From: an uncultured Methanoregulaceae archaeon
GTDB taxonomy: Archaea; Halobacteriota; Methanomicrobia; Methanomicrobiales; Methanospirillaceae
Direction: 5' to 3'
DNA length: 64,000 nucleotides
Assembly: GCA_963841015.1 (NCBI GenBank)
Contig: CAWJAX010000002.1
Span: 96,001-160,000, forward strand
Positions 10,101 through 55,262 of the stretch are shown here, one piece after another; the stretch's first letter is position 1, and each line of letters begins with the position of its first letter. The translations under genes and the position numbers were made by a program. The notes under the pieces are model-generated. The model ran no database searches. It saw only the letters and a list, made by a program, of their open reading frames with translations, and was not told the DNA's origin.

Positions 10101-10544
10101 TCAGGAGAGCATCATGCCATGCAACACAGGGTTGCAATGCCATGCAGAAGGGATTATAGAATTTACAAAAAAGGAATCACCCGGTTTTCCCGGCCAACTC
10201 CCCTCCTGTATCATCCCGCCTTTGCTTCCGCTCCATTCCTGCTCGTCATTCATCAAATTGCAGACCTGTATTTTGAGAACCGGTAATTCTTCGTGAACGC
10301 TATTCCAGAGTAAATGCCAGTCCACACGAAAATACCGGGAAGTAACAATACCCCTGATCCCTTCATGGCCACTCCAGTCCACTTCAGGAGGGGCTGCGAT
10401 CAGGGATTCCGGCAGGTTTTTTGAGGCTTCCCAAGGACCTGAATATTTTATAAGGATCGTATCCTTTGTCCGTTCATCGGCCATCAGCTGATCCAGTATG
10501 TCGGATGTATCCCGCATGTTCCTGATAGAATAGAGGTACTTCAT
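10101..10544 (-). CDS. Degenerate DUF86/HepT-like (HEPN) ribonuclease, orphan
   Basis: EASKNLP...PEVDW...GIRGIVTSRYFRVDWHLLW...EELPVLK follows the DUF86 pattern, but the RxxxxH histidine is missing and no MNT partner is adjacent. Confidence 0.65.
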   Translation of the reverse strand: MKYLYSIRNMRDTSDILDQLMADERTKDTILIKYSGPWEASKNLPESLIAAPPEVDWSGHEGIRGIVTSRYFRVDWHLLWNSVHEELPVLKIQVCNLMNDEQEWSGSKGGMIQEGSWPGKPGDSFFVNSIIPSAWHCNPVLHGMMLS

Positions 10545-10652: not shown

Positions 10653-11189
10653 ATTCCGTTCTGTCCGGAATGCGGCTGCAGTGTCAAAATTGAGGATCAG
10701 TTCTGCGAGAGCTGCGGTACTGCTCTTTCGAAAACAGGGTTCCCGGTCCCTCCGCAGCCCTATATGCCTCCTCCTCCACAACCAACCCCACATCTTACTC
10801 CAGGGACACCTTTAGCCGGCCAGCCCCTGCCGGTCCGGCATAAGAGTGCTGGCCTTGCCGCTCTCGGGTCACTCTTGTTTTCCGGTCTCGGCCAGGTGTA
10901 CAACGGGCAGCTGCGAAAAGGAGTAGCGATATTTTTTGGAACCATCGCCGGTGTGCTCATGTTCGTTGTGCCCGGGCTCATCATATGGATGTTCGGGGTG
11001 GCAGATGCCTGGCAGACGGCAAAGAAAATGAATGAAGGCAAAATCCCCTTCCAGGAGCACAGCTGGCGCCAGATCATCGCTTTCTTCATGTATTCCTTTG
11101 TCATGGGATACCTCGTCTATTCGCTCCTTATGGTACTCCTGGGGATGATCAACGAAGGGGTTTTTTCTGAGATGATGATGTCATACTGA
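10653..11189 (+). CDS. Zinc-ribbon + Pro-rich linker + TM2-like membrane protein
   Basis: ORF 10764-11189 extends in frame upstream to IPFCPECG...FCESCG; KSAGLAALGSLLFSGLGQVYNGQ motif. No canonical in-frame start (ATT at 10653, or an error in the G9 run). Confidence 0.75.
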   Translation: MPFCPECGCSVKIEDQFCESCGTALSKTGFPVPPQPYMPPPPQPTPHLTPGTPLAGQPLPVRHKSAGLAALGSLLFSGLGQVYNGQLRKGVAIFFGTIAGVLMFVVPGLIIWMFGVADAWQTAKKMNEGKIPFQEHSWRQIIAFFMYSFVMGYLVYSLLMVLLGMINEGVFSEMMMSY

Positions 11190-11294
11190 CAGGCGGCCAC
11201 TAAATAACAGGCATTGCAGTATCGTACCAGCAAAAAAAAATGGCAGAATCAAACCGTGATTTTGTTGGTCCCGGCAAAAAAACAAAAAAACAGA

Positions 11295-11684
11295 TCAGGT
11301 ACGTCTTCTGCCGCATTTCCCACAGAATTTCGCACCGGGCTTAATCGGGTTACCACAGGCAGCGCAAACTGAAGACGGCGGAGGGGGCGCGGTCACTGGA
11401 GCGGCAGGGGCCCCGCAGTTGCTGCAGAATTTTTTACCGGGTGTTACCGGTTTACCGCAACCAGGGCAGGTAGATGGAGTTGCCACGGTCTGAATCGGTT
11501 GTGGCGATGGAGAAGGAGAAGAATCAACTGCCGCTGCTTCAGGTTGGGAAGAAACATTGCACGCTATCAGATTTCCGGCGGGATCATAACGGTACGTCAT
11601 TACTCTCCCATTATCGTATCGCACACTCGACAGGCGGTTCCGACCATCATACGTATAGATTATTTTTCCTAGTGAATCTTTCAT
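11295..11684 (-). CDS. Small protein with 2 YD/RHS repeats, Pro/Ser linker and double zinc ribbon (DZR)
   Basis: YTYDGRNRL...YRYDPAGNL; CPGCG...FCSNCG...CAACG...FCGKCG; AAGGGG RBS-like sequence upstream. Confidence 0.85.
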   Translation of the reverse strand: MKDSLGKIIYTYDGRNRLSSVRYDNGRVMTYRYDPAGNLIACNVSSQPEAAAVDSSPSPSPQPIQTVATPSTCPGCGKPVTPGKKFCSNCGAPAAPVTAPPPPSSVCAACGNPIKPGAKFCGKCGRRRT

Positions 11685-11706
11685 AAACTATTACCCCTTC
11701 TTCAGA

Positions 11707-14700
11707 TCACTTGCATTTATTGTCCTGATCTGCAGTCCAAGTATCATACCAGTTATTGGCTGCATTCCAGGCCTGCCCGAAATTTCCGGGGACGGCTTCG
11801 AACCAGTTACGTGCGGCATCGAACCATTCTCCCGTCACCGTATCAACTGTGGCTTTTACTGCCTGAGTACGTATTGGAGATACCGGATCCCCCCCAAGAG
11901 GTCTCCCACCCTATCGGGGATGTGGTCAGGATCGCGTTCCACAGTGCCTTGTGTCCTTCCCAGAAATCATCCATAACCGCTTGGCTCACATCTCCCTGAT
12001 TATTGTTCATCTGCCTTTCGTAGGCACCTGGTGCATTGGGATTAGTAAAGTAATCAATCGACCCAGCAATCTTATTATTGATGGTATTGAAGGTCCGGTC
12101 ATGCCTCAAGCCAAAACAAGCACCCCCATATGCGATGAGGATTAGCCCACCTGCAATGATAGGACCGAGGAGCCCTTCAGGATCCATGTACGTGACTGGA
12201 TTATTTCCTGCATACATGTAGACATTTAAGCCCCCGAGGATACCGATCGGGTCTTTCTGGATGAACCGCCCGGTTACTGCATCATAATAACGCCGTTTCA
12301 TGAAGTAGAGACCCCCTCCTTCCCGCATAACCCCATACAACCCGCAGTAGGTGAACGGCTGGCTATGTGCAAGGGATCCGGTCTCCTCGAATACATTGCC
12401 GAACGGATCGTACGCATAGGAGGCAGAAATGTTACCTTGTTCGTCAGTGAGACATAGGATATGACCACAGGTGTCGGCATGATAGAAATACGTCCTGCCG
12501 TTTGAGATCATGGCAAGAAGCCGCCCCCGGCAATAGACGTAGCATGAAATCACGTTTCCCGTTTCATCAGTCTCTGCAATCAGATCTCCTGTCGGACCAT
12601 AGAGATAACGATGGGAACCTCCATTGCCCGTGCTCTGGACACGCTGCCCTCTTCCATTATACGCAAATATCCGGTGCTCCCCTCCGGTTTTGAGATCGGT
12701 CAGGTGATTAAACGCATCATACTCCGCAGTAAAGGCCCGGACACCTTCGAACCTGGTGAGATTGCCATCACGGTCATACCGGAACCTGTCCCCATTCCAG
12801 GTCTCTACCTGGTTATGCGGTGTGTAGGTAGCAGTAACGGAATCCTTCCGGATTCCCTCCGGGAAAGGCTGTTTTCCGTTCTCCTCACAGATATTTCCTG
12901 CAGGATCCCGGATACAGGATACCGCGGCAACAGTTTCCGAACCCTTCAGGTGCGCTGCCTCTGTAATGCGCTGCCGTGCGTCAGAGCGATAGGTGCTTCG
13001 GGTTCCGTTCGAACGCGATTCAGAAAGGATGTTCCCCACATTATCATACCGTATCTCAACTTCATGACTCCCGAAACGTACCGTTACGGGACGGTTACGG
13101 GTATCGTACTGGAATTTCACCAAAAGACCGTCAGGGTACAGGATTGAAGAAATATTATCTGCTTCATCGTAGGTGCACGTAATTTCCTGATTTCCCGAAA
13201 AAGAAATGCCAATAACACTCCGGACGCGATTGTAGCGGTATGTTGTTTGACCGGCAGAATCGTTCATCTGGACAAGATTGCCCGCAGGATCATACCGGTA
13301 CGATGCCACGGTTTTACCGTCAAGCTCTTTCCCGATAAGATGACCCTCCGCATCATACTGATTTGAGATACGCTGGCCTTTTCCCGTGATGATCCCGCTG
13401 ATCCTGCCTTGCAGATCACGCGTGGCAGAGGTAGTGACCCCGGTCTGGTCGATCTGCTGGATCGGGGCACCATTCTTGTCATGCACAAAAGATATCGTGT
13501 TCCCCTTCTCATCGACAATGCGGCCCGGTGTCCTGCCAAATGCATACTCAAGCCGGGAAATTTCACCGGTTGGATAGGTTGCACCGGTTAACCGCCCAGC
13601 TCCGTCATACACAAAGTCAGTCGTCTGACCGCGTGGATCCACGGATTGGATCAATCGTCGGCATGGATCGTACCGGTAACGAAAACTGTTTCCGTCCCCG
13701 TCTCTCCGTTCGATGACAGAGAGGAGCGGATCCCGGGTAATTTTCATCTCTTTCCCGTTCTCATCTATGGTTGCGAGACGGGCACAACACCCGTATATAT
13801 GTTTTAATGAAGTACCATCTGCGTGAATTATGCGGGTCAGCCGCTGGTTACGGTCGAACTCATATTTGGTAGTGTTCCCCCGTGCATCCGTCATTGCCTG
13901 CAGGGTAAGCCCGGAAGGATCAAAGGCAAACCGGGTCCGGTGACCTTCAGGATCCGTTATCTCTGCCGTGTTCCCAAAAGAGTCGTAGCTGAATACGGTA
14001 ATACTCTTATTCTGATCTGCCACGGAAACAAGCTGGCCTTTTTGGTCATACCTGATACGAATTTCTGATCCTGATGGACTCTGCACTCCGGTTAAGTGCT
14101 GACGTGAATCAAAGGAGAACCGAAATGTGCTTCCAAGAGGTGTTGTCTCAGCCGTGAGATTCCCGTACTGGTCATGGGTAAACGTAGTCATTTCTCCATT
14201 GGGGCTCGTATACCGGACCGGGTTTCCAGCCGGATCATACGTCATCCGGCTCCCTTTACCCTTGCCATCGTTATGCCCGACCCGCTGACCTCCCTCGTAT
14301 TCGAAAAATTCGGATTCTCCCAGGGGATTGGTGATCGTTACCGTTTTCCCGTCTTTGCTCACATAGGTGGTTGCATTGCCGAGGGGATCGGTGATCTTTA
14401 CTGAATCTGCATCCCGTTGATACCGGGTCGTATAACCGGCTGCATCAGTAATAGCAGAGAGCAGGGAATTGCGATACTGAAATACCAGTCGCTTCCGGTC
14501 TTCTCCCACTTCCATGAGGGTTACGAGACCCGCAGCATTATATTCATACCGTGTGGGAATTCCCTGGAGATCGGTCACTGCGATGAGGTGCCCCCCCTTA
14601 TCATACTGAAATGAGGATCGCCTCCCGTCAGGAAGCACAAAACCCGTGCAGAGTCCGGCACTACTGTCAAACCGGGTTACTCTTCCCGCAGCATCCGTAA

Positions 14701-15256
14701 TTCCCCGAATTGCACCGTCGTTGGAATATTCCAGGGTAACAATATTTCCATCAAAATCACTTATTGAGTGCAGCGGAAGGATGCTTTTACCTTTGATTCG
14801 CAAATAGCGGTAGGACAAACGGGCTCCTTTCGGGAGATACAGCCAGTGAGTCCCGTAATCAAGAAGCCTGTCCCCGTTGTTTGATAGAGTCGCTGCTTCG
14901 ACAGGAGTCGTTTCGCTCCCGCTTCCTGGCGGTAGACTGCTTCGGAAACGGAGATTCTGTCCCGATCCCTTTTTCAGGAGGATCATGTTCCCCTCTTCGT
15001 GGAGAGATGACTCAAAGGAAAAACACCAGCCGTAGCCAAGCTGACTCCTGTCTCTGGAGAGAGAGTTATAGGTAAGGGTAAACCGGATTGCAGGTCCGAG
15101 CCCTTTATAGAATGATATTCGATCTTCGATGATGAGATTAAGGTTGGATGTGTTTACCCAGTAATTTGGCAGACCGAGCCTGTGTTCCGGTTCTTTTCCA
15201 TTATAGAATTCCGTCATCGGATAATCTGTTGGACTACCTGTCCTGATTTCAGTCAT
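11707..15256 (-). CDS. Rhs/YD-repeat protein: DUF6531-like N-terminus, YD shell, Rhs core and uncharacterised C-terminal domain
   Basis: TYNS...LGYGW; many YD-xxG-L repeats; YAYDPFG...RYYDAVTGRFIQKDPIG...NVYMYAGNNPVTYMDPEGL. ATG 15256 overlaps the upstream stop (ATGA) after AGGAGG. The called ORF stops at 11843, but removing one G from the G7 run (11889-11895) extends it to TGA at 11707. Confidence 0.92.
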
Positions 15257-16380
15257 GAGCACCCTCCTGGCCCCTGGCCACCATTAAACTCAGTGTCGGG
15301 ATTATCGCCACGGCAGCCATGGTTCTGACTCCCGTCTCCGGGTAACATACCCCCTCCACCATCTCCACCATCTCCGCCCTGAGACATGGTCTGGATCATC
15401 GTCGGCCCGTTGACCGCCCCTGCTACCAGAGCTGATGCGCCTCCCGCAAGTACCTCGGCAGTTCCGGTTGTACGCATGCAGTCCTGGGCATTGAGAGGAT
15501 CGGTCAGACAATCGTGCGCCAGAACGATCCGAACGCAGAAGGATATCCCTATAAGGATAGCAAGGGGAATCCTGATATCAGGCAACCGCCCGGTTTGCGG
15601 ATCCCCTTGGTACCTGTCAGCGAGTACAGGTTCCCGGACGAGTGCATACGAGGCAAGTGTTCCAATGATGATATTCACGTACATCAGCGGGTACTGGCTA
15701 ATCTGGAAAACATTGTAAAGAATAAAAGCTGTCAGGAATGGAACGGCTATCCCCATTCCAATGAGCAATTTTCGGGAAAACTTTTTCCGGCCTGGCTGGA
15801 GTGGCATCAGGAAGTTATCAATCGCTTTCCGTTTCCAGATCAGGAGCACTGGCATGGCAACTATCAATAGCGGGGAGATAAAATCAACTCCCTCTCTCAT
15901 GCTGCCTTTTGTCAAAAGAGAGGTAATGGGAATTATGCCTGAATAAACAAACCAGATCACCGCCATAACAATGCCCATCATGATGGATAACCGGTCCCAC
16001 CATATCTGGGGTCTTTTGTTCCAGGGAAGGCTCTTTGAGATCTGGTTGAATGTATCCTTATCCATGATACCGGCCCTGAACTCAGAAAAGTTCTGTGTTC
16101 CCGCTGCTTCGGGCGGGGGGTTGCGAACACCAGATGCGTGGGAGGCTGGTGGCATGTAGGTTGACGTTTGTACTGGCAGGGGAGGTGGTCCCGGCTGCCA
16201 TTGCGTGCCGTTCCAGAAGATCCACCCTGTCCCTCCGGGATCGGGCTGCCACCAGACGCCTTTCTCATCTGTCACTCGTAATTGATCAATAAGAGTCCGG
16301 TATTGCTGGTCGGACAGCGATCCATTCTGCCGTTGTACCTGCAGTTCGGTATATCTCCTTGCCGCTTCACTAAAGTCCAT
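15253..16380 (-). CDS. Polytopic membrane protein (Trp-rich N-terminal domain, ~5 TM, Gly/Ala-rich C-terminal segment), translationally coupled to the Rhs gene
   Basis: GVWWQPDPGGTGWIFWNGTQW, Pro-rich linker, hydrophobic helices, HDCLTDPLNAQDCMRT, Gly-rich tail; ATGA overlap. Confidence 0.8.
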   Translation of the reverse strand: MDFSEAARRYTELQVQRQNGSLSDQQYRTLIDQLRVTDEKGVWWQPDPGGTGWIFWNGTQWQPGPPPLPVQTSTYMPPASHASGVRNPPPEAAGTQNFSEFRAGIMDKDTFNQISKSLPWNKRPQIWWDRLSIMMGIVMAVIWFVYSGIIPITSLLTKGSMREGVDFISPLLIVAMPVLLIWKRKAIDNFLMPLQPGRKKFSRKLLIGMGIAVPFLTAFILYNVFQISQYPLMYVNIIIGTLASYALVREPVLADRYQGDPQTGRLPDIRIPLAILIGISFCVRIVLAHDCLTDPLNAQDCMRTTGTAEVLAGGASALVAGAVNGPTMIQTMSQGGDGGDGGGGMLPGDGSQNHGCRGDNPDTEFNGGQGPGGCS

Positions 16381-16517: not shown

Positions 16518-17525
16518 CTAAACGAGTGCGCTGGCATTGATCACAGACAGCCCACCCTCCGTCCCAATCCAGAATGTACCTTCCGGGTCTTCCCTCACAA
16601 CCTTCACCTCGTTTCCGGCAAGGCCATCCTTTCTCGTGAGGATCCTGTCTGTTGTTTTGTTCCCCACAAGCACGCCGTCATATTCTGACCCGATCCACAT
16701 CCGCCCGGACTTGTCCTCGTGAACAGACCGCGTCGAAGGGCCGGCCAACCCATCAGCAATCGTGAATGCAATCCATTTGCCGCTGGCATATTTCGCCGCC
16801 CCTCCCTGTCCGGAAAATCCGGTAGCTAACCAGACGGCCCCGTCAGCAGATTGTGTAATATCCCTGACCACCGGGTGGGGCAGACCGTTATCCGTCCCGT
16901 ACACCGTCCAGTTCCGGCCATCAAACCGGAACAATCCCCCATGGGTTGAGGATCCACATCCAATCCAGAGGTCTCCGGAACTATCAAAAAACAATGCATC
17001 TGCAGATGCCAGAGTCATAGAACCCGGAGGAACGATCTCAATCCAGGTCCCATTCATGTATTGAACGATTTTACCTTCGGTCCCAACCCAGATCGAACCA
17101 TCTGCACGAGAAATGACACTGAGGGATTTTGATATGGGTGCCCCGGTATGTTCGTCAAAGACAGTCCATGAATTGTCTGAGAACCGTGCAAGTCCACCAT
17201 CATGGGCAACCCAGACAGAACCTGTTGGATCGTTTGCAATCCCCCGCACGTACCCGAACTGCGGTGCACCGGGGGGAAGAGGTTGCCGGGAACGGTTGAT
17301 CCTGTCAAACACGATTACTCCTCCTTTCCCCCCGGTCCAGACCATGTCCCCGTCAATAAGGATCGTCGATACCTCATCCGGAGGGCGGATGATCGTGAAT
17401 CCTGACGGTGTACTGAGCATCTGGGCATGGCTGAGCAGAAAGCCAGCCACCAGTATGGCCGCAAAAATGATGAGAATACCAGCGCCAACCTGGAGGACAA
17501 CCGGTATATTCCGTTTTATATTCAC
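16518..17525 (-). CDS. Membrane-anchored beta-propeller protein (two-component regulator propeller type)
   Basis: N-terminal TM; repeated D-x-x-G-x-[VIL]W[VI]G[TS]xGG blades; GLP/GLA motifs. Confidence 0.85.
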   Translation of the reverse strand: MNIKRNIPVVLQVGAGILIIFAAILVAGFLLSHAQMLSTPSGFTIIRPPDEVSTILIDGDMVWTGGKGGVIVFDRINRSRQPLPPGAPQFGYVRGIANDPTGSVWVAHDGGLARFSDNSWTVFDEHTGAPISKSLSVISRADGSIWVGTEGKIVQYMNGTWIEIVPPGSMTLASADALFFDSSGDLWIGCGSSTHGGLFRFDGRNWTVYGTDNGLPHPVVRDITQSADGAVWLATGFSGQGGAAKYASGKWIAFTIADGLAGPSTRSVHEDKSGRMWIGSEYDGVLVGNKTTDRILTRKDGLAGNEVKVVREDPEGTFWIGTEGGLSVINASALV

Positions 17526-17564: not shown

Positions 17565-18239
17565 TCAAACCTTCGAGGTCTTCCCTGTGACAGGTGTTAT
17601 CGTCCCGTTTTCCAGGATAAAAAACTGGTCGCCAATCAGAAGGGCTTCAGCACGATCATGGGTAACATAGACTGTCGCAGCCCCGCTGGTGTGAATCATC
17701 TCCCGGATCAGGGGAATGAGTGAGTCTTTGAGATCCGAATCAAGGTTGATAAGCGGTTCATCGAGCAGCAGGCACCGGGGATTTCCTGCGAGTGCACGGG
17801 CAAGCGCTGTCCTCCGTGCCTGTCCCCCGGAGATTTCACTGGGGTACCGCTCTTTGAGAGAGACCAGATCGGTCATCGTCAGGAGAGTTTCAACCCGTTT
17901 GTTTTGTTCGTCTTTGGGTAGACCCTTAAGGACAAACCGGATATGTTCCTCCAAAGTCAGGTGAGGCCAGAGCGCCGGGGTCTGGAACATCATGCCGATC
18001 CCCCTCCGGGCGGGATGTTCGTGGAACCCGTCTTGATCTACAACCTGCCCATCGATGGAGATCGTTCCGGAATCCGGCGGATCGAGCCCGGCAATCACTC
18101 GCAACAGGGTGGTCTTTCCACTGCCGGAACGGCCAAGGACGACCGCAATTGTGTCATCAGGAACCTGAAATGAAATTCCTGAAAGGACCGGCGTCTTGTT
18201 ATATTGTTTTTTTACACCCGTGCATTCAATCATGCGCAT
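17565..18239 (-). CDS. ABC transporter ATP-binding protein (FbpC/PotA-like)
   Basis: GRSGSGKT, ISGGQ, LLLDEP, YVTHD. Confidence 0.92.
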   Translation of the reverse strand: MRMIECTGVKKQYNKTPVLSGISFQVPDDTIAVVLGRSGSGKTTLLRVIAGLDPPDSGTISIDGQVVDQDGFHEHPARRGIGMMFQTPALWPHLTLEEHIRFVLKGLPKDEQNKRVETLLTMTDLVSLKERYPSEISGGQARRTALARALAGNPRCLLLDEPLINLDSDLKDSLIPLIREMIHTSGAATVYVTHDRAEALLIGDQFFILENGTITPVTGKTSKV

Positions 18240-19845
18240 TGCTCCCAAAAAGCCTGAACCTCTTTATCCATATACTGATACCGAACAACGTCAGAAGTGT
18301 TGCGATAGTCGTAATCCCTGCCATGATGACACAGAGACCAGCTACCGCAGAAAATGAGCCATAATGGAGATAATTGTAAATTTTCATCGTCAGGGTCTGG
18401 TGCCCGGGGGCTGCCACCAGCAGGGTTGCACCCAGCTCTCCCAGCGTGAGGGCAAATAAAAATACTGCAGCAATAAATATTCCCGGGGCAATCATCGGAG
18501 AGACGACTCTCCTGTATGATGCTGAACCCAGGTCACCAAGGAACCGGGCAGCATCCAGCAGGACCGGGTCGATCATGTGCACCTGGGCGCTTATGATGAT
18601 AATCGCCACAGGTAAAAACCGTACGATTCCTGCAAACACCGGAAGAAGGAGACCCATAATTGGACCAAGAGTTGTGGCGGCAAACAAGGTAAGCAGCCCC
18701 ATCCCGATAAGTGATGAGGGAATTGCTAGTGACAGGGTGACCAATATCCAGAAAACGTGTTTTGCGTATTTCTCTTTTGGCATGAGAGATACGATACCGG
18801 CAGCCAGCGGGATACCAATCAGAACCGCAAGAATCCCAATCTCGAGAGAGTATACGATTTCCCTACCGGATGTGCTGATCGCTGCCCCAGCAACCGGCAG
18901 GGATCCCATGCTGCCGGCAGTCCCGAAGATGAGGACACCGACCTGCAGTACAATAAGGATAACCGCGGAGTACTGGAGAACACTGAACCATGCCGGCCAG
19001 TCCTGGAGCTGGCTGGTTCCTGTCCCTGTCCAGCCAGGAAATTCACCCATTGCCCGGATGCCCGGCTGACAGAAGACAAGAATACAGACAGCAACTGCAA
19101 TCAGGGGAAGGGCAGCGGCACAGGCTATCGCTATGGCATTCGTCGCGCTGAACGCTGCAAAGATGTCAAGAGCATAGGTATCCACGCTGAAAAGTGACGG
19201 CACACTGTACTCGGTAATCCCCAGCAGGAAAAGAAAACCAAAACCTGCGGAAAGAAGCGGGTACGAGATCGGGATCATGATTTTTGAAAGTACAGTAATA
19301 TCCGTCGATACGACCCGTGCCGCATCGATCAGGTCACGGCTTATGGCATGGAGTGCTATGATCCCGATAAGGCAGGCAAAGGGCAAAAAGGCCATGACCT
19401 GCACCCACCATGCCATAACCCACCCCTGCAGCGCAAACGGCTGGTAACTGGTCCCGGTGACAAGCGTGTTGAACGCGGAGATTATATTGTTCCAGGCCAG
19501 AGCATGAATATACGGCGGGATTGGGAGCAGTGCGATGATAAGCACTATCATGGCTCGTGACACCCCCCGGGAGAACCGTGGGATTGCTGTAGCATAAAGT
19601 ATGCCCATAAGTAATGCTGATACTGAGCAAACCGCAGCATACACTGTGCTTTTAAGGAGAAGCAGCCCGGATCGTCCCGACCAGACCAGCTGGGTGGTTA
19701 TTCCCGAATCCCCGCGTACAAGAGAAATGCAAAAAAGGAACAGGATAACTCCAATGGGAAGAAGGATGGGAAGCAAAAGAAGAATGAGTATCATGAACCG
19801 GACAATACACCCGGAAGAGATCTTGCCAAATATCATGGAATGCAT
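18226..19845 (-). CDS. Fe3+/thiamine-type ABC permease (duplicated BPD_transp_1, FbpB-like)
   Basis: ~12 TM; two EAA-like loops (LIDAARV, LLDAARF). Confidence 0.85.
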   Translation of the reverse strand: MHSMIFGKISSGCIVRFMILILLLLPILLPIGVILFLFCISLVRGDSGITTQLVWSGRSGLLLLKSTVYAAVCSVSALLMGILYATAIPRFSRGVSRAMIVLIIALLPIPPYIHALAWNNIISAFNTLVTGTSYQPFALQGWVMAWWVQVMAFLPFACLIGIIALHAISRDLIDAARVVSTDITVLSKIMIPISYPLLSAGFGFLFLLGITEYSVPSLFSVDTYALDIFAAFSATNAIAIACAAALPLIAVAVCILVFCQPGIRAMGEFPGWTGTGTSQLQDWPAWFSVLQYSAVILIVLQVGVLIFGTAGSMGSLPVAGAAISTSGREIVYSLEIGILAVLIGIPLAAGIVSLMPKEKYAKHVFWILVTLSLAIPSSLIGMGLLTLFAATTLGPIMGLLLPVFAGIVRFLPVAIIIISAQVHMIDPVLLDAARFLGDLGSASYRRVVSPMIAPGIFIAAVFLFALTLGELGATLLVAAPGHQTLTMKIYNYLHYGSFSAVAGLCVIMAGITTIATLLTLFGISIWIKRFRLFGSNAHD

Positions 19846-19873: not shown

Positions 19874-20929
19874 TCAGCGAATGAATATCCCCCTCAGATC
19901 CTGCTGGCTTTGTGCAAGATACGGGAATATCTCCGTATAACTGGTATTCATCGTGCGGATACCGGTCGAATTCATGCACGGGTTCATTATTCCTCCGTCC
20001 CGTACCGGGATCTGGATCCAGCCGGATTTTACAAGGTGAGCTTCTGTGTCTTTGTTGAGCAGGTAATCCACGAATTGCCGTGCTTCCTGTTCATGGGGGG
20101 CACCTGCAATAACGGCGATAGTATTCGGGATGATAAGGGTTCCGAGCCCGTTTGTTTCCTGGTCTGGCAGGACAATGATGACCGGCGCTCCCCGTTCCAC
20201 CGCCCCGCATGCATCGTCCGTATCCGTGAGCCCGAAGGTCAGCTGCCCATTGGCAACAAGGTCACGGACAACAGAATTCCCGTCAACAACACGCACCCCC
20301 CGGTCGTTGAGACGGTTGAAAAATTCCTGTCCTTTATCCCTGCCAAGGATGGCATACATGGCAGCAGCATGGGTAGATGTAGTACCGAACATCGGGTACG
20401 CAATCCCTAAAGAATCTGCAGGGTAACGATCATCAAAAAAATCATAGATGGATTTGGGCGCCGTAATTGTACCCAGACGTTTGGTATTTACCAGCAGAAC
20501 CCTTCCCCGTCCCCCAAAACCCGTCCATGATCCATTCGGGCTTTTATATTGAGGGGGAATATCTGCAGCAGACGGGGATTCATACCTCTCCAGCACCCCT
20601 TCCTGCTCCAGCAGCATGGTCTGGACAATCTCCCCGCTCCAGAAAACATCTGCCTGGGGATGTGCTTTTTCAGCGATGAGCCGGTTTACCAGACCCGTGG
20701 TCTTTGCAGCTTCAACATCGTAAACGGCACGTACATGGATGCCGGTCCTTTTTTCAAACTCAAAAAAAAGCGGTTCTGAATATACCTGGTCAACAGAAGT
20801 ATAAATTACGACTTCACGAGATGATTGTGTCCCCAGCTCGTCATGGAACAGGAACAGCAAGGGTGCAATAACCAGTATCATAACGGCAAGTACAATAAAA
20901 AGCACATGTCTGCCTTCCATGGGTCTCAC
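19874..20929 (-). CDS. Fe3+-type ABC substrate-binding protein (FbpA/AfuA-like)
   Basis: N-terminal TM; VVIYTSVDQ, RLIAEKAHPQADVFWS, GLTDTDD. Confidence 0.85.
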   Translation of the reverse strand: MRPMEGRHVLFIVLAVMILVIAPLLFLFHDELGTQSSREVVIYTSVDQVYSEPLFFEFEKRTGIHVRAVYDVEAAKTTGLVNRLIAEKAHPQADVFWSGEIVQTMLLEQEGVLERYESPSAADIPPQYKSPNGSWTGFGGRGRVLLVNTKRLGTITAPKSIYDFFDDRYPADSLGIAYPMFGTTSTHAAAMYAILGRDKGQEFFNRLNDRGVRVVDGNSVVRDLVANGQLTFGLTDTDDACGAVERGAPVIIVLPDQETNGLGTLIIPNTIAVIAGAPHEQEARQFVDYLLNKDTEAHLVKSGWIQIPVRDGGIMNPCMNSTGIRTMNTSYTEIFPYLAQSQQDLRGIFIR

Positions 20930-21560: not shown

Positions 21561-22337
21561 TTACTTCATAAGTGCGTTGACCTGTTGTGAGTGCGCTAGT
21601 GCATCATAATAGTAATCCTCGCACTTAAAATAAAAGTCATCGCTTCCATAAAAATCCCCTGAATTTTCTTTGTCTACTGCCTGAACACACAGATCTGATG
21701 CAGTCCGTAAATCTTCAAGGAAGGCAATATATTCTTGTGCCGCAGATTTCTTTGTTGTAGCACCCGCAGCAAGTTGCCTCATTTCTGGAAGATTTTGATC
21801 AATATACGTCCTCAAAAGGGCAGCGTTGATACGAATTTTTGCTGTATCCCATTGAGTAAAACCGTAAGAAACAGCTTGAATGGGAGGTGTCATCCAAGCA
21901 TCCATCTCAGTCATTTTAGCAAGTGCTGCTGTATCCCCACTCATTGAGAATACCGCAGATTGTGGTGCATATGTTGTTTGTGGGGGATTAGAGTATGATG
22001 CACCTAAAACTGCATAACCGATTATACTGACAATAATTATCAGGAGAATTATCACCCCCCCAAAAATAGCAACCCATTCAACAGTAGATCTCTTTTTCGT
22101 CATTCTCTCAGTAGCAGACCCTTGCGGTTGCTGTGCAGATGTATGGACAGCGGGAATTTCCTTTTCCTTTTTCATTGGGGGAATATACAATACTGGTTGT
22201 ACGGATTGTTGGGTTGGTGCTGGTTGTGATATAGGTAATTGATCTGTAGCTGATGAAACAGAAAGGGCTGTTCCACAATTTTCACAGAATTTGTCATCAG
22301 GTGTATTTTCTCCACAATTTGGACATACCTTTTCCAT
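21561..22337 (-). CDS. Zinc-ribbon single-TM protein with helical extracellular domain
   Basis: CPNCG...FCENCG, Pro/Gln linker, one TM; AT-richer than its neighbours. Confidence 0.8.
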   Translation of the reverse strand: MEKVCPNCGENTPDDKFCENCGTALSVSSATDQLPISQPAPTQQSVQPVLYIPPMKKEKEIPAVHTSAQQPQGSATERMTKKRSTVEWVAIFGGVIILLIIIVSIIGYAVLGASYSNPPQTTYAPQSAVFSMSGDTAALAKMTEMDAWMTPPIQAVSYGFTQWDTAKIRINAALLRTYIDQNLPEMRQLAAGATTKKSAAQEYIAFLEDLRTASDLCVQAVDKENSGDFYGSDDFYFKCEDYYYDALAHSQQVNALMK

Positions 22338-43962: not shown

Positions 43963-44141
43963 ATAAGGTAATTTTACTACAGTCATTATTTATCAACTTC
44001 CCTAAACTATGCTATGAAGGCCGATTGAGCTCTGAGCTGTTTTTATGAATACTGCCATCACCTCTGGTGGGTCCCATAATCGCATGTACCCATAACCCCG
44101 TACAACAAGCGTATTCGCAGCCTGTTCCTGATGCAGTCTTC

Positions 44142-44298
44142 CTATCTGAACACACTGATTTTCTGCAGGATATACCTGCGAACACTGGCATCTTTCTCGC
44201 CTTTAAGACGCAGTTTAAGAATGTCCAGAACCGTTTCTTCCGTCATGACGAAACGTTTCCTGGAGATCTTTCCAACCTGCTGTAAATGAGTTATCATG
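44142..44298 (-). CDS. Small basic hypothetical protein
   Basis: Part of ORF 44142-44342 (MITHLQ...MTEETVLDILKLRLKGEKD...); start uncertain. Confidence 0.35.
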
Positions 44299-44460
44299 CC
44301 AACCTTTTTTTTACGAGCAGGTATAACGAGAGAACTTCTCAATAATCTTTCCCCGTGTTATAAGATTTGTTACAAAAAATGAAAACAAATCGCGACTACA
44401 CGAGGTTCAGGACAGGCTGTCAGGGAGGGCAGGATCGCAGCCACACCCGGGTTCTGAAGT

Positions 44461-45754: not shown

Positions 45755-45845
45755 TCTGGCAACATACTCATTGCCAATGAGTATGTAAAAAATAATGCAA
45801 TCTTTTATCGGTTTTAGATAAGAATAGTGAAGCAGGGAGTCCATT

Positions 45846-47042: not shown

Positions 47043-47146
47043 AAGACCCGGATAAAAAGACCATGAATCCCGTTGATTGAGTTGATGCTCATTTGGGGCT
47101 TTTTTTCGCCCCTCGCCAGAGTGTGCCCAAAGAGGCACAAAAATAA

Positions 47147-48298
47147 TTACTGCCCGGTTCCCCGTGCGATGATCCTGAGGTAATCGGCAAAGAGATATTT
47201 CTTGTATCGTTTTTTCCCGGTGATCTCATGGAGAATTTCCAGTTTTTCGAACTGGCCTGCCAGATCATAGGCAGGCTGGTGACTGATACCAAGCGCTGAA
47301 CTGATATCGGCAACGGTGACGACAGGTTTTGTGAACAGGAGGTCGAGGAGCCGGACGGCATTCAACCCCCCGGCATTATTTTTGATAAGGGTACCGGTGA
47401 GCCGTTCCTTGAGGGTGATGATCTCCCTGGCATTGGCAAGAGCTTCTTTAGAGACTTCGATAATGCCGCGGAGGAAGAATTTCAGCCACGATTCCCAGTC
47501 TCCTTCGATCCGGATTTCCTGGAGCAGGGAATAGTATTCTTCCCGGTGTTGTTTTAAGTAGATGCTCAGGTACAGGAGAGGTCGGGCAAGGATGCCTTTC
47601 TGGCAGAGATAAAAGGTGATGAACAACCGTCCCATCCGGCCGTTCCCATCAATGAACGGATGGATCGTCTCAAACTGCGCATGAACGAGCCCGATCTTGA
47701 TCAGGGGAGGAATCCGGTCATCGGCCATGATGAACGCTTCGAGATCGGCGAGCAGTTCCGGCACCTTTTCCGGGGGCGGCGGAACGAACGTCGCGGAATG
47801 CAGGCTGGAGCCGGCCGGACCGATCCAGTTCTGTACCGTGCGGATCTTTCCTGACTCTTTCCTGCTGCCGCGTGTCCCCCAGAGGAGGACACGATGGATT
47901 TCCTGGAGAATCTCCACAGAAAAGAGCTCGTGGCTCGTGCGTGCGAGTCCCTCATCCATCGCCCGGATATAGTTGATGACCTCTTTGACCTCGTTGATGT
48001 CATCAACGGGGACCATATCTGCCTCGAACTCAAGCACGCCCTGGAGCGATGCCTGCGTTCCTTCGATCTGAGAACTGAGCAGCGCCTCTTTTTTTACGTA
48101 CATGGCGACGAAGAGATCTGCGTTTGGGAGAACCGTTGTCATGCCGTCAAGACGTGCGAGGGCGCGATCTGCTTCCGAGAGGAGGTGATGAAGTTCGTCA
48201 TCGAAATGGACCGGGGGATCCGGGGGCAGGGGTTTAGGGATATATGCCTGGTATCCTCCTTTCTGGCGTACCGTGATTCCCATCCGGCTTTCAGTCAT
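47147..48298 (-). CDS. Fic-family protein (Fic_N + Fic + C-terminal wHTH)
   Basis: EALLSSQIEGT, HPFIDGNGRMGR, EITGKKR. Confidence 0.93.
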   Translation of the reverse strand: MTESRMGITVRQKGGYQAYIPKPLPPDPPVHFDDELHHLLSEADRALARLDGMTTVLPNADLFVAMYVKKEALLSSQIEGTQASLQGVLEFEADMVPVDDINEVKEVINYIRAMDEGLARTSHELFSVEILQEIHRVLLWGTRGSRKESGKIRTVQNWIGPAGSSLHSATFVPPPPEKVPELLADLEAFIMADDRIPPLIKIGLVHAQFETIHPFIDGNGRMGRLFITFYLCQKGILARPLLYLSIYLKQHREEYYSLLQEIRIEGDWESWLKFFLRGIIEVSKEALANAREIITLKERLTGTLIKNNAGGLNAVRLLDLLFTKPVVTVADISSALGISHQPAYDLAGQFEKLEILHEITGKKRYKKYLFADYLRIIARGTGQ

Positions 48299-48906
48299 AA
48301 TTCTTCTTCTCCAGAATATCCGTACAGTTTCTTCTTGTAATTCTGGCCAGCCAGAGTTACACACGATTGTTATGGTTAAATTCTGTTTAACCAGAATAAG
48401 ATTGTTGCGCACAGGGGAACCTTGCATGGCACAAAAATGGTGAAATTTTTTTAAAAGAACGAGTGGATCCGTGTGCATTCCGCCACCTTACGCCGGAGTG
48501 CCATGGAGCGGACCGATCCCCCGCAATTCTCTCCTTTTTTGCCAAAATACGCCCAGATACCCCCATCTTCAAGGGAAGGCAGCCAAAGGGTTCCAGGGCT
48601 CGATCTCCTCTTCAATGGGCTAAAGGAGGTGCCTGATGAAAACGAGCTCATGTTTGGGGGGTCGGATTCAGGTTATATTAGAGGTTATTTTGGCAATCAG
48701 GGCTGTTTTTGGGCATTTCTTTGAAAAGGAGAAATCGGGGCGTTTTACGGGTTTTTCCGGGAGAGGTTTTTGGGAAACGGAGGCTGAACCGGGCCCGGAT
48801 TGGGGGTGAGGGAGATGCAGTGGTGTCGTGATGGTGTTTTTATTCCCCGGGAACCGGGATTGAGAGATTCCCTTTTCTCCCGAACGAATCCCGATAGTAT
48901 CGTATT

Positions 48907-51696: not shown

Positions 51697-53600
51697 TTAT
51701 TCAATTTCGTGTGCTTCAATCAACTCATTCATCCCGGCATTTTTAAGAATTGCGTAAGTCGGTTTCATATTTTCGAAAATTTTTGTCGGAACAAAAATGC
51801 ATAATCCATCTCGGCCGCGTGTCATCAAAACACGATACGCATTTTTTCTGATTTGATGGGGATCATTAATTTTATTGGTGGTATTCATTTTGAAATTCCA
51901 CCGTTTTCCATCAAAGATAAAATCATCTCCCCACACCAAAATGGAAAAATCAAGTTCTAATCCTTGACATTCAAACTCAGTAGCAGGACGTGAAAGGGCG
52001 CAACAGGATTCTGGATCAGTAGATGGGGCATTAAACCACCGGTTTACCCGAAGATTTTTAGTTCGTTCGAAATGCAATTGGTTGTCGATTCCGATTGATT
52101 CTAAATTTTTTGCATATCGCGAAGCAAGTAATCCAAATTTTTCATTTTTATCGTTTTGATACCGCAACCTAACATATCTTTTAGCGATTTCCAAATCCGA
52201 AGTGATGTAAAGCGGGTAACCGGCTCCAATGATCTTTTTCGATAATTCTACTAATTCAGGAAGATTGTTCGTCGGCTCACTCAGAAGAATCTCAACCCAC
52301 TTGTGGAGATCTTCTGCTAAATGAGATCGAAGAGAGACCGTCAAATTTAATAGAGGTTCGATTCTGCATTTGACATTCTGCGATTCAAATACATTTAAGA
52401 GATGTTGAGGGCAATGGACAACCCAATTGTTTTGTTTACCCGAATTGACCGCCTTTGCCCATTGGGATAAGCCGGCTTCTTCTCCACTGTAAATTTCTTG
52501 CCCCTCACCTACTAGACCTAATTACGACACACCAATCAGGGATCCGTTCTGCGATGGAGATGAGGAGAGAGGGTTCTGATGCTTTGATTTTATGCTTCTT
52601 TTCAACTAATTTTTCATCCCATGCTCTTTGGGCTTCATCGAAAATGATTATGTGTTCAAGAGGAATTGTATCCGGACGTTTGATAGCATGATAAATGACA
52701 TATTTTTTCATGCCTTGAACAAATGTTGAACTATGAAGAGCATCCTGTAACACATCTACGAGCGGACCGTTACCTGATAAAAAAACAACGGGAGCTCCTA
52801 ATTTTCTTCCATCTCTTTCAACCCTAAGATCATTCAATCGGGGTTCATGAGCGATCTGCAAACCCACGAGGGTTTTTCCTGAACCCGGAACCCCTGTTAA
52901 TAACACCAAATGTCGTGTTTTGGTTTCTGCTGCGGTATGAGCAATTTGGGTGATAAGTTCAACGGTTTCTGGAATTTTTGCGCTTGCAGCCTTTCGAATT
53001 TGTGGGAGAGGAAGATTGTGGTAAAGAAGATAAGCCGCTTGAATTAGACTAGGTAGAGGTGCATATTCGCCTTTTGTCCATTTGTCGGGATAAATCTGGG
53101 GGCCAATTTTTTTACGACAGAGTTCCACAAGTTCTTTTCCTAATATCCTTGGTGAGAGGATGGTTACACCATTAATCTCTGATCGTTCTGCATTGCTTCG
53201 AGTTAAAACAAGAATTGGAATGACTTTTAATTCATGGCATTCAGAATGATAATTTTTTAGATCTCTTGCATACGCCGCTACTTGATCAATATCAGATTCG
53301 ATTGCGGACACTTTACCTTTGAATTCAATTACAGCAACAATTCCATTTTCAAGAATAATCACATCGGGCCGTCGGCCTTGACGTGGTAATTCATATTCAA
53401 AAATTACTGTAAACGCTTTGGCCTGCTCTTCTTCTGAAAGCATGTATTGTCCTTCGCGTTGTACAGATCGGAATGCTAGAATCCCATGCTCGAATTTGAG
53501 AAATATTATGATCCTGCAAAAACTCTTCTATGGTTTGACGGATGATTCGGGGTTCTGCTTGGACAAATGAAGGTAAATCGGAGAGCCAACCGTATTCCAT
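51697..53600 (-). CDS. DUF2075 (Schlafen group 3-like) helicase with N-terminal NERD/PD-(D/E)XK nuclease
   Basis: FEYELPRQGRRPDVIIL...VIEFK; GVPGSGKT; IFDEAQRAWD; TEFECQGLELD; NAYRVLMTRGRDG; indels near 53450 and 52510; visibly AT-rich. Confidence 0.88.
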
Positions 53601-53739: not shown

Positions 53740-54120
53740 TCAATACCCTCGCTTCCCCGGCACAACCCCCCGCACCCCGCCTCTCGGCTCTTTCACATCC
53801 CCAACATATCGCGGAATCATATGACAATGGCAGTGCATAACGGTCTGCCCGGCCGCTTTACCAATGTTGAACCCTATGTTGTACCCGGCCGGTCGAAAAT
53901 TCTTCTCAATCACTTCTTTACACTCATCGATCAAAGTAAGCAACTCCTGTTTCTCCTCAACAGTCAGGGAAAAATAATCAGCCACATGCCGGAATGGGAT
54001 CACGAGCAGGTGCCCATTGCTGACCGGGTAGCGGTCCCAACGGGCATAGATAAAATCGTTCTTCACTACAATGTCATCCGACACGGGATTGCAGAACGGG
54101 CATTTCACGGGATACTCCAT
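53740..54120 (-). CDS. HIT-family nucleotide hydrolase
   Basis: CPFC, YPVSNGHLLVIP.RH, AAGQTVMHCHCHMIPR; overlaps the end of the HNH gene. Confidence 0.93.
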   Translation of the reverse strand: MEYPVKCPFCNPVSDDIVVKNDFIYARWDRYPVSNGHLLVIPFRHVADYFSLTVEEKQELLTLIDECKEVIEKNFRPAGYNIGFNIGKAAGQTVMHCHCHMIPRYVGDVKEPRGGVRGVVPGKRGY

Positions 54121-55262
54121 GCATCGAACCCCCGGACCTCAATAAGATATTCGCATTTTTCACCGAGCCGTTCCAGTGCCACATCCTGCCAGCCGGGCAC
54201 TGTTTCCGGTGAACCGATCAGAGCGAGATTAATCTCCCGGGAAAATCGCTTGGGATAGACATCGTGCATGCTGTCCCAATACGTGGCAATCGCATCAGAT
54301 CTCTTGTCGATAAACGCCGGTGAGGGAATCATGTCCCGTTTTTTCCCATTGACACTCTCCAGTGACGGCAGTAAGTTCCAGAGATTGTTATTCTTCCAGA
54401 CCGTGAAGGGAATCATGTGATCCACATGGAGCTTCGCAATATCGTTGATCGGCTTTCCGGACCAGACACATTCAAGGGCATGACAGTTCTGGTACAATTT
54501 CGTATAGACCTGTCGTGCCTCACTCACCGCCCGGCTGGTTTCCGGTACGGTTCTTAATGTTTCCATAACCGAGGCGACCGCGACCGATCCCCCGCTTGCC
54601 TTGCTCGTAAACTCTGCCCATTGATAGACCAGCGAATCATCGCCGGAGATGAAACTCCCCAGGTACTGGAATACCCAAAACAGATCGTTCCGGAACGAAA
54701 ATGTCCCGGAATAATGTACGACCGATTCCTGATCGAACGGTGTTCCAACAGGTATCCGTTGGGCATCGTTGTTATACGTGAAAACAGAGAAATCCCGGTG
54801 TCCCTGCGAGCGGCCCAGGTGTTTCATTGGCATGGTGGTTATCGTGGTTTTGAGTTTTACAATTAATGTACTGACCGTGGAAGAAATTTCAGGTGGGATG
54901 GATCCATTCACGTAGTCGTTATAGAAAACCGAGAAGCCACCTTTTCCTGCATAATAATCCGTTACTTCTTTGAAAAGAGGCCGGAAGGAGATCCTCTTTT
55001 GGAGGGAATCTTCTTTTTCTCCATGCATTTGTGGTAAAAATTCCTGGCTTTCAATAATGGGATAATAATACAGGAGCCATTTCTCAATGAGAAGCCCAAG
55101 AGGGAGAGAGACAAGATCCCCGGCCTCTTTTCTCAGGTGCTGGAATTCCTGCGAGACCTCAATGACGCTGCGTAACAGGGCAAACTTATAGGTCGTATCT
55201 TTGCTGTCCCGCTCAATAATCGTATTGATCGTTTTGAAATTCTGGAGATCAAACGATTCCAT
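54105..55262 (-). CDS. HNH endonuclease with large N-terminal helical domain
   Basis: KDTTYKFALLRS; CVWSG...HVDHMIPF...NNLWNLLP...VNGKKRD. Confidence 0.88.
   Translation of the reverse strand: MESFDLQNFKTINTIIERDSKDTTYKFALLRSVIEVSQEFQHLRKEAGDLVSLPLGLLIEKWLLYYYPIIESQEFLPQMHGEKEDSLQKRISFRPLFKEVTDYYAGKGGFSVFYNDYVNGSIPPEISSTVSTLIVKLKTTITTMPMKHLGRSQGHRDFSVFTYNNDAQRIPVGTPFDQESVVHYSGTFSFRNDLFWVFQYLGSFISGDDSLVYQWAEFTSKASGGSVAVASVMETLRTVPETSRAVSEARQVYTKLYQNCHALECVWSGKPINDIAKLHVDHMIPFTVWKNNNLWNLLPSLESVNGKKRDMIPSPAFIDKRSDAIATYWDSMHDVYPKRFSREINLALIGSPETVPGWQDVALERLGEKCEYLIEVRGFDAWSIP

Follow-up and report, generated by a model that had tools for sequence, protein, structure and literature searches.

Seven co-directional genes with short gaps between them lie on the minus strand of the DNA analysed here, a window of 64,000 nt within the 2.28-Mb genome (5 contigs, 94 % complete) of an uncultured Methanoregulaceae archaeon. 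They code for the substrate-binding protein (SBP), the permease and the ATPase of an ATP-binding cassette (ABC) transporter, a membrane-anchored β-propeller, a polytopic membrane protein (MEM), an Rhs shell protein and a small protein of two YD repeats and a double zinc ribbon (YDZ). A preliminary description, made from the sequence alone, had presented the last three as a self-standing system. Its three open reading frames, the ATGA overlap (MEM stop TGA 15255..15253, Rhs ATG 15256..15254), the YD shell with a leaderless start and the combination of YD repeats with a double zinc ribbon were all present as stated. The trio proved to be one cargo variant within a seven-gene accessory island, so that the view of a self-standing system was given up. 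The archaeal origin of the contig, which might have been bacterial or chimeric, was confirmed by mcrA in the genome and an archaeal DUF2193 gene in the window (E 8e-272); the named relatives of the window proteins belong to Methanoregula, Methanoregulaceae and Methanomicrobiaceae metagenome-assembled genomes (MAGs). By these markers the host is a methanogen of the Methanomicrobiales.

The Rhs protein and its membrane head

The Rhs gene is the sole Rhs locus of this genome. RHS_repeat (PF05593) was detected by Pfam in 11 stretches of the protein (E 2.7e-79), which amounts to the length of a shell, DUF6531 is located at residues 57-106, and the Rhs-associated core ends with DPEGL at residues 1025-1029. 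The core reads ...GRFIQKDPIG...NNPVTYMDPEGL and thus contains the PxxxxDPxGL motif of the aspartyl autoprotease, for which cleavage is predicted. With PF03527 the window protein scored 24.0 bits, below the cut-off of 27.9; its intact relative in locus L032 was assigned by NCBIfam to RHS_core and YD_repeat_2x, with TIGR03696 above the cut-off (E 2.3e-19). The first 85 residues contain no hydrophobic segment (maximal hydropathy, KD19, 0.56), and neither a signal peptide nor a PAAR, LXG/WXG or TcdB/TcaC trafficking domain was found in the protein by Pfam and hydropathy. The lack of secretion genes, noted before for the window, extends, for PAAR, sheath and gp25 (PF05488, PF04984, PF04965), to the 94%-complete genome, where they gave 0 matches and the controls were detected. 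The head of the Rhs protein comes from MEM instead, in trans in this genome and in cis in a fused relative, P0087.

In all six MEM-linked Rhs proteins the shell is followed by a C-terminal domain of 135-165 aa, which in the window consists of 109 aa in frame and 50 codons displaced by a frameshift. Directly past DPxG[LT] the domain opens with a hydrophobic helix (KD19 1.84-2.18 in 6/6), and a Cys is located near its end. The domain is homologous in four loci and diverged in L048 (24 % identical) and in P0087. The best score in the ESM Atlas was 0.82, under 0.9, and a word-based search returned only its own cluster. By analogy, the domain is most likely a membrane-active toxin of the Tse5 kind, with hydropathy as the one property that points to pore formation.

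MEM comprises an N-domain (residues 1-66), five clearly hydrophobic helices (KD 1.47-2.39), a weakly hydrophobic sixth one, an invariant Cys loop (HDCLTDPLNAQDC) and a disordered Gly-rich tail that terminates in DNPDTEFNGGQGPGGCS. An AlphaFold2 (AF2) model from an alignment of 32 rows had a mean pLDDT of 69.7. The N-domain was modelled with confidence as two helices and three strands, followed by helices at residues 125-158, 168-182, 184-198 (amphipathic), 203-223, 229-248, 270-286 and 307-335 and a disordered tail. No match to MEM was obtained in Pfam, NCBIfam, the PDB sequences (0), Foldseek against PDB (0 at E<=0.001) or the ESM Atlas. A word-based search yielded 44 homologues of 227-627 aa. 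A profile search over 1.84 billion representatives yielded 1825 matches at E<=1e-3, 455 at <=1e-10 and 130 at <=1e-30, with lengths of 109-2012 aa. The homologues have the first ~335 residues in common, as far as L-[VI]-N-G-P-x-x-x-Q, and diverge completely beyond. Their alignment (A1) shows conserved Trp residues in the N-domain, helices 1-5, the loop A-[DH]DC..DPLNAxDCxRT, a sixth helix that ends in NGPxxxQ and, after it, a variable cargo. This cargo is a PAAR domain in P0027 (E 1.8e-18) and a double zinc ribbon in P0043; other extensions are coiled-coil and Gly-rich domains, and still others are without a Pfam match. In four Chloroflexota-type loci (L041:9917-11688, L070:4947-6985, L072:7956-9391, L073:1545-3061) the MEM homologue is distributed over two overlapping genes, with the N-domain and helices 1-4 on gene A, and L076 has the undivided form.

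The relation between MEM and Rhs is apparent from P0087, a single protein of 1558 aa in which MEM is followed by DUF6531, RHS repeats, DPQGL and a C-terminal domain. It bears out the role of an N-terminal head that had been proposed for MEM, and the MEM and Rhs genes of the window are therefore the split form of one architecture. P0087 surfaced in the profile search; a word-based search for longer MEM relatives had found nine, without recorded Rhs domains. The Rhs-linked MEMs carry a specific tail, DNPDTEF.GG.GPG.C, and the split Rhs proteins open with a similar P-x-T-x-F-x-x-G, of which the fused P0087 has a single copy. Judged from these motifs, the duplicated junction segment of MEM tail and Rhs start may serve docking.

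Several further observations were made on the MEM family. Tandem pairs of MEM-cargo and partner genes occur within one genome (L047:5828-12012, L051:6022-11300), with near-identical heads and unrelated cargo, in an array like that of polymorphic toxins. Proteins of 1700-2000 aa (P0166, P0171, P0172, P0180) match the profile in the N-domain alone (profile positions ~3-95), located ~150 residues from their start and accompanied by a D5_N primase-like match; the small MEM N-domain therefore occurs outside the MEM context, too. At window position 15354, in the Gly-rich linker of MEM, the contigs of three other runs are 9 bases shorter, an in-frame difference of three codons. Two candidate relations were dropped: a shared fold of the MEM N-domain and a partner family of 136 aa (hhalign probability 0.2), and a prePAAR-like motif at the MEM N-terminus ('EAARR' in the window), which the homologues do not conserve.

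Conservation of the island and its partner genes

The preliminary description had proposed the three-gene order from a single locus, and the order, with all genes co-directional, was recovered in related loci. MEM is adjacent to Rhs in 12 loci: the window, 9/9 close metagenome loci, genome G145 and L048. The metagenome scan had given ten loci with MEM, nine of them close (54-93 % identity), and in all nine the Rhs start lies within the end of MEM. Since the Rhs start overlaps the MEM stop in each of the 12 loci, the split of the two genes is genuine. Rhs is followed by YDZ in 5/5 loci that reach past Rhs, and of the nine close metagenome loci the two that extend far enough, L032 and L039, present the full order MEM-Rhs-YDZ. 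G145, from another family of the order, holds propeller, MEM and Rhs up to the contig end, and G343 (L043) the Rhs C-terminus and YDZ. In L048, a MEM of 71 % identity is followed by a frameshift-broken Rhs with a different C-terminal domain and again by a gene with YD repeats and zinc ribbon. The dN/dS ratios against L032 and L039, for YDZ also against L043, were 0.16-0.25 for MEM, 0.23-0.33 for Rhs and 0.24-0.37 for YDZ. Because of this recurrence in related loci and dN/dS values of 0.16-0.37, the arrangement of the trio is not due to chance. The identities of the modules are discordant (L034: MEM 88 %, Rhs 42 %; L039: MEM 54 %, Rhs 77 %), which indicates shuffling. Among 401 genomes of the order, 19 had Rhs matches, and Rhs was located beside MEM only in the genome under study (G000) and in G145.

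The other genes of the island accompany MEM over a wider range. In nearly every locus whose flanks are long enough, synteny of SBP, permease, ATPase, propeller and MEM was observed, and it spans bacteria, with four loci of Anaerolineae/Chloroflexota (L070, L072, L073, L076) and one of Holophagaceae (Acidobacteriota; L075). The presence of the MEM family in Chloroflexota/Anaerolineae and Acidobacteriota does not agree with the purely archaeal system that had been envisaged. Among 101 genomes of the genus, the propeller was found in 11, the SBP in 12 and both in 11, namely in G000 and in ten MEM-positive genomes. In the order sample a MEM match at E<=1e-5 was obtained for 38 genomes, 11 of which matched with the N-domain alone. 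The propeller was present in 23 of the 27 fuller MEM-positive genomes, and MEM in 23 of the 29 propeller-positive ones; the exceptions, six genomes with propeller and no MEM match and four with MEM and no propeller, are mostly fragmentary MAGs. As far as sequence comparison can tell, the whole block behaves as one accessory unit that is present in about 12 % of the genomes of the genus and has crossed between the domains.

YDZ consists of two YD repeats (residues ~8-41), a Pro/Ser linker and a double zinc ribbon (residues 73-125). Pfam assigned RHS_repeat (E 4.6e-9), DZR (PF12773; E 5.8e-11) and Zn_Ribbon_1 in two stretches. All eight ribbon Cys, which form two CxxC...CxxC ribbons, are invariant in 4/4 YDZ sequences, and the best-conserved stretch is the pair of YD hairpins. 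A hydrophobic segment was absent in the hydropathy plot. The preliminary description had treated the zinc ribbon as a device of the Rhs system; across the whole MEM family, it was found to be a generic tail of cognate partner genes. For 34 MEM genes the next gene was inspected, four of them of the Rhs type and 30 others, of which four had an incomplete next gene. Dropped beforehand were same-place duplicates, MEMs cut by a contig end (L049, L066, L067), the split bacterial forms (L041, L070, L072, L073) and Rhs-type loci on partial contigs. A CxxC...CxxC pattern within the last 60 residues of the next gene was observed for 19 of the 26 non-Rhs MEM-cargo genes, against a baseline of 12 in 1999 crude genes of this genome. 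The seven misses include L044, with an N-terminal ribbon before a membrane helix, L052, with the ribbon in the second gene downstream, L061 and L071 with frameshifted cargo, the MEM-propeller fusion L069, a spurious GC-rich frame in L074 and, without any ribbon, L076. Pfam confirmed Zn_Ribbon_1 or DZR in 7/7 partners tested.

The N-domains of the partners belong to several unrelated families and follow the cargo. In 78 pairs of 13 sets, cargo and partner were both related in 16 and neither in 49, an agreement of 65/78 with 13 discordant pairs; in the tandem sets of L047 the heads are 82 % identical, the cargo 25 % and the partners 26 %. Because the zinc-ribbon tail and the cargo-following N-domain hold across the MEM loci, YDZ is, to judge by these comparisons, the zinc-ribbon-tailed partner of the Rhs-type cassette, with a generic ribbon and YD hairpins as its cargo-specific part. 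A prediction of the complex of MEM (A1) and YDZ (A2) scored 0.00 in both runs and is uninformative about binding. The idea that YDZ is a displaced orphan piece of Rhs was rejected: within its own Rhs, the best match covers 40 residues at 42 %, and for the L048 partner the match falls in another part of the Rhs of that locus (residues 223-260, first fragment). The two matches differ, thus YDZ is a generic YD pair and not a recent Rhs fragment.

The features of the island are listed in Table 1. The two T7 tracts resemble an archaeal oligo-T terminator and are likely to mark the end of an operon, with the terminator role assigned by resemblance. Rfam and tRNA scans of the window gave no matches. 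A scan of the window for sigma-70 promoters and hairpin terminators, a method ill-suited to archaea, remained at the level of shuffled sequence. RNA run X21 contains related contigs of 90-99 % likeness, which are no evidence of transcription.

Table 1 Features of the seven-gene island, positions in the window
Feature	Position	Strand	Basis
ABC substrate-binding protein (SBP), PhnS/SfuA-like, first gene of the island	19874..20929	-	NCBIfam 2-aminoethylphosphonate/thiamine-type SBP, below cut-offs
ABC permease, importer-type, double length	18226..19845	-	NCBIfam ModB/PhnV/PotC-like matches; synteny
ABC ATP-binding protein	17565..18248	-	NCBIfam; synteny in archaeal and bacterial loci
β-Propeller, membrane-anchored, Reg_prop repeats, N-terminal signal anchor	16518..17525	-	Pfam Reg_prop E 1.9e-23; adjacent to MEM in nearly all loci
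MEM, polytopic membrane protein, 375 aa	15253..16380	-	Hydropathy, charge, AF2
AGGAGG, ribosome-binding-like site within the MEM end, 6 nt upstream of the Rhs ATG	15263..15268	-	Direct reading
Rhs shell protein, 1137 aa in uninterrupted frame, ATG start	11843..15256	-	Pfam, NCBIfam
Hydrophobic helix opening the Rhs C-terminal domain, right after the DPEG cleavage motif	12116..12172	-	KD19 1.91
Frameshift site, one extra G versus relatives	11861..11863	-	Alignment with L032, L039; contigs of other runs
Displaced last 50 Rhs codons, +1 frame, ending ...DQDNKCK and stop	11707..11859	-	In frame in L032, L039, L043
YDZ, 129 aa, two YD repeats and double zinc ribbon	11295..11684	-	Pfam
Two T7 tracts, 5 nt past the YDZ stop	11276..11290	-	Direct reading

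Proteins with a zinc ribbon and a membrane helix are encoded on both flanks of the island (window 21561-22337 and 10764-11189); the L032 counterpart of the latter has an N-terminal ribbon. Other MEM loci close with a DZR-TM-β-sandwich-like protein (DZR, double zinc ribbon; TM, transmembrane helix), e.g., L046:7057-8049, to which the flank protein at 21561..22337 is similar in the ribbon alone. A HepT-like ribonuclease, the toxin of the HepT/MNT pair, lies on the same strand just downstream of the island (window 10101-10544). A defence-like stretch (window 44000-56500) includes a Fic adenylyltransferase-like gene (47147..48478), a Schlafen-type helicase domain (52505..53443) and an open reading frame of 385 aa (54105..55262) with a weak match to an HNH/Cas9 segment (E 4e-6, far under the cut-off). 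What looks like a surface repeat protein is encoded at window 604-2085; it is a tandem-95 repeat protein and matches, over a long stretch, a myxosortase-dependent M36 peptidase model in its C-terminal part.

Interpretation of the island

By a slight inclination, we prefer to read the island as a polymorphic toxin-like system that is tethered to the membrane, has cognate partners and uses no known secretion machine. This reading starts from gene order, family architecture, co-variation, co-occurrence, the fused form and purifying selection; toxicity, docking, topology, the role of the partner and delivery are what it would add. The trio would be the cargo end of the seven-gene accessory island, and MEM a conserved membrane head that carries a swappable cargo past ~335 residues, be it an unrelated domain, PAAR or an Rhs cage. 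The Rhs cargo of the window would be a separate, translationally coupled gene product that docks on the Rhs-specific MEM tail (DNPDTEF..GPGGC). Its cage, with an intact aspartyl-protease core motif, would enclose the ~155-aa C-terminal domain led by the hydrophobic helix. The partner would combine a cargo-matched, variable N-part, here the YD hairpins, with a constant zinc ribbon that is likely to keep it at the membrane or at the system, and would act as immunity-like neutraliser, as loading adaptor or as both. In the producing cell, the most probable orientation of cargo and partner is towards the cytoplasm. Within this scheme a shell-binding adaptor or neutraliser is slightly favoured for YDZ over a classical domain-specific immunity protein, because the YD hairpins persist in L048, where the C-terminal domain has diverged.

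A number of points weigh against such a toxin-like system. Related genomes and loci are not independent, thus the counts given above are descriptive and overstate the support, and the fusions P0087 and L069 each rest on one record. Hypervariability after DPEGL, expected in the preliminary description, was not found in the four closest loci, which share one C-terminal family with 46-54 % identity to L032. Pfam recognised a toxin family neither in the C-terminal domain of Rhs nor in any of the cargo, and an AF2 model of this C-terminal domain, all-helical with a pLDDT of 48.8, is too poor for use. The retention of the YD hairpins in L048 next to a different C-terminal domain suits shell binding more than domain-specific immunity. 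The transporter of the island is by NCBIfam an SBP-dependent importer type, which a toxin model leaves unexplained, and a cargo that faces the cytoplasm offers, in the absence of a secretion system, no route to a target. The cargo could also face outwards: the sixth MEM helix is weakly hydrophobic (KD19 1.22), helix 5 terminates in an invariant Ala within a V-x-A pattern like a signal-peptidase site, and gene B of the split bacterial forms begins with a signal-peptide-like helix 5, ending in A-x-A before DDC, and continues with the Cys loop, helix 6 and the cargo. Finally, one extra G near position 11862 (CAGGCAG versus CAGCAG in the relatives) shortens the Rhs frame of the window.

This extra base concerns the functionality of the present copy. 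If the frameshift is a true mutation, the Rhs gene is a decaying relic and non-functional in this genome, a doubtful though quite conceivable case that is independent of the other readings. The frameshift and a gap of ~22 bp had been predicted in the preliminary description, and both were verified. In L032, L039 and L043 the Rhs frame extends 50 codons further, to ...DQDNKC[KQ]; in the window the 50 codons are open in the +1 frame (11859..11710, stop 11709..11707), and with the frame restored the gap between the Rhs stop and the YDZ ATG is 22 nt. The loss of the last 50 codons speaks for a relic, as do the relatives in runs X2 and X3, the 2/2 other runs that cover the site, whose contigs are one base shorter at 11862. 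On the other side, the displaced tail is still open and conserved (dN/dS 0.25-0.30 against L039 and L043), and X1, the likely source run, leaves the site uncovered, as its contigs do not extend over 11635..13164. A SulP and STAS sulfate permease gene of the window (27551-29288) is also split into two overlapping reading frames, at profile position ~260. With this second frameshift in the window, an assembly indel is plausible for Rhs as well.

A classical Rhs toxin-immunity pair, in which YDZ binds the released C-terminal domain, MEM is a mere anchor and the rest of the island is irrelevant, appears unlikely. The location of YDZ directly downstream of Rhs is that of an immunity gene, cargo and partner co-vary across the wider family, and YDZ and the C-terminal domain co-diverge over the window, L032, L039 and L043. 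Against an immunity protein stand the YD hairpins as the best-conserved part of YDZ and their recurrence in L048 together with a C-terminal domain of just 24 % identity. A membrane-active domain would call for a membrane immunity protein, but YDZ lacks a hydrophobic segment, a common C-terminal zinc ribbon on unrelated partners is foreign to the known immunity families, and the ABC and propeller genes co-occur with MEM.

The side on which the cargo resides depends on the topology of MEM. Lys and Arg are distributed with 12 residues in the predicted inside loops versus two in the outside loops. By this prediction the N-terminus lies in the cytoplasm, and the invariant Cys loop, A-[DH]DC..DPLNAxDCxRT, is exposed on the outer side. 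The cargo would then be cytoplasmic, provided that the sixth helix crosses the membrane. The leaderless Rhs and partner proteins, the C-terminal zinc ribbon of P0043 and the sixth helix in the AF2 model fit this orientation, as does L069, in one genome, where MEM runs into a propeller that has retained its positively flanked anchor. L069:7890-10055, from a Methanoculleus MAG, is an open frame of 722 aa, uninterrupted between MEM and the Reg_prop propeller gene; a real fusion and the loss of a stop are both conceivable. Overall, the MEM cargo is probably cytoplasmic. In an exported version, helix 5 would be an internal signal peptide cut after the invariant Ala, and the cargo including Rhs would be displayed or released outside, a case likened to the Sec-dependent Rhs toxins of monoderm bacteria and overlapping with the membrane-tethered system in everything except topology. 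The Ala ahead of [DH]DC in the V-x-A pattern, the two conserved Cys in the loop, the weak sixth helix and the separate signal-peptide-led C-terminal module with A-x-A before DDC in L041, L070, L072 and L073 are consistent with export. We rate it as improbable: the split Rhs is leaderless in all 12 loci and the partners are leaderless, too, the L069 fusion requires a cytoplasmic MEM C-terminus, and a cleavable leader followed by a sixth helix equally gives a type-I membrane protein with its cargo still in the cytoplasm.

Still less credit is given to an intracellular abortive-infection, toxin-antitoxin-like or signalling system, in which propeller and SBP/ABC sense an envelope signal, the MEM-held cytoplasmic effector is silenced by the zinc-ribbon partner and, with none delivered, the effector is released in the same cell: the predicted cytoplasmic orientation of cargo and partner, the genome without PAAR, sheath or gp25 secretion genes, the sensor-type Reg_prop domain, a patchy accessory distribution like that of defence islands and the other defence-like genes of the window (Fic, Schlafen-like helicase, HepT) would suit it, but no nucleic-acid sensor or regulator domain was seen, and Rhs cages, like PAAR, are typical of toxins that are delivered. 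To our knowledge, neither of the two acts as a suicide effector.

The membrane-tethered toxin-like system might obtain a route to its target in a contact system that is independent of secretion systems. There, the propeller would recognise the MEM Cys loop of a neighbour, the MEM-cargo would move, by contact or exchange of membranes, into the membrane of the neighbour, the cytoplasm-facing toxin, in this genome an entire Rhs cage with a membrane-active domain, would act inside the recipient, and membrane-parked zinc-ribbon partners would protect kin. Taken together, these steps are a long shot. If they were true, kin discrimination or warfare across the divide between archaea and bacteria could follow, an idea that arises because the island is common to methanogens and to Chloroflexota and Acidobacteriota of anaerobic habitats.

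Comparison with known systems

Archaeal polymorphic toxin systems and fusions of RHS to halocin C8 are reportedly a subject of the 2019 mBio article by Makarova and colleagues. In the literature on archaeal and Rhs polymorphic toxins, supplements not covered, no description was found of the MEM head family or the mini-protein of YD repeats and zinc ribbon, nor of the zinc-ribbon-partner rule, the linkage to ABC and propeller genes or the sharing between archaea and bacteria. The island is apparently undescribed; an earlier description is possible.

Rhs polymorphic toxins are known from archaea, as Zhang et al. 2012 (PMC3482391) report for Methanosarcina acetivorans. With Rhs toxin-immunity loci the present locus shares the YD shell, DUF6531, the PxxxxDPxGL core, a C-terminal domain of ~150 aa and a small downstream gene. 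In contrast to them, an unnamed family supplies the head as a separate polytopic membrane protein, no known trafficking domain is present, the downstream gene combines YD hairpins with a double zinc ribbon, an island of ABC and propeller genes is attached, and the C-terminal domains of the loci seen belong to a single conserved family instead of forming an assortment. The closest analogy for the cargo is Tse5 of the type VI secretion system (T6SS) of Pseudomonas aeruginosa, whose Rhs shell chaperones a C-terminal fragment of ~16 kDa that is an integral-membrane pore former (PMC10684867). A cage around a hydrophobic C-terminal domain is likewise predicted here, with pore formation suggested by hydropathy. 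Tse5 is fired by the T6SS, whereas PAAR, sheath and gp25 were not found in our genome, and between the C-terminal domains no sequence similarity was detected. The haloarchaeal T6SS mediates contact-dependent antagonism with toxin genes that are followed by small protective genes, and in that account the systems of methanogens are left unexplored (PMC11566945). Those pairs depend on a contractile injection system, unlike the present genes, for which no PAAR, sheath or gp25 accompanies them in the genome.

Among multi-part and membrane-bound toxins, three further systems are comparable. The prePAAR effectors of the T6SS, which are handled by Eag chaperones, are built of a transmembrane region, then PAAR or Rhs, then a C-terminal toxin. 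The same domain order is seen here, and the MEM relative P0027 ends in PAAR. MEM differs by a folded N-domain of 66 aa, five to six helices and the Cys loop and has no conserved prePAAR motif; the genome lacks a T6SS, and the partner is not of the Eag type. In the Tc toxins, the subunits TcB and TcC jointly build one cocoon around an autoproteolysed cargo. That more than one polypeptide builds or serves a YD cocoon would be a common trait, but YDZ contributes merely two hairpins, and the Pfam scans of Rhs, made without a separate search for TcA, revealed no SpvB, TcdB-mid or TcA-like domains. Finally, outer-membrane exchange by TraA/TraB in Myxococcus delivers polymorphic SitA lipoprotein toxins without a dedicated secretion machine. 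There is no homology to TraA/TraB, and membrane exchange is pure conjecture for our island; shared with SitA are a membrane-anchored polymorphic toxin-like cargo, a cognate partner and a co-inherited surface protein.

As known so far, Rhs toxins are for the most part carried by bacterial secretion machines, and the conflict systems of archaea are barely charted. In this island an Rhs cage is tied to an unnamed membrane family that acts like a scaffold for polymorphic toxins. Should the cargo prove toxic, polymorphic toxins would here be held, and perhaps delivered, in a new way that uses no known secretion system, and the study of competition among methanogens and with their bacterial neighbours would gain an opening. 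Even if the island is no weapon, three families of considerable size, MEM, the zinc-ribbon-tailed partners and the propeller and ABC set, would obtain a first functional context.

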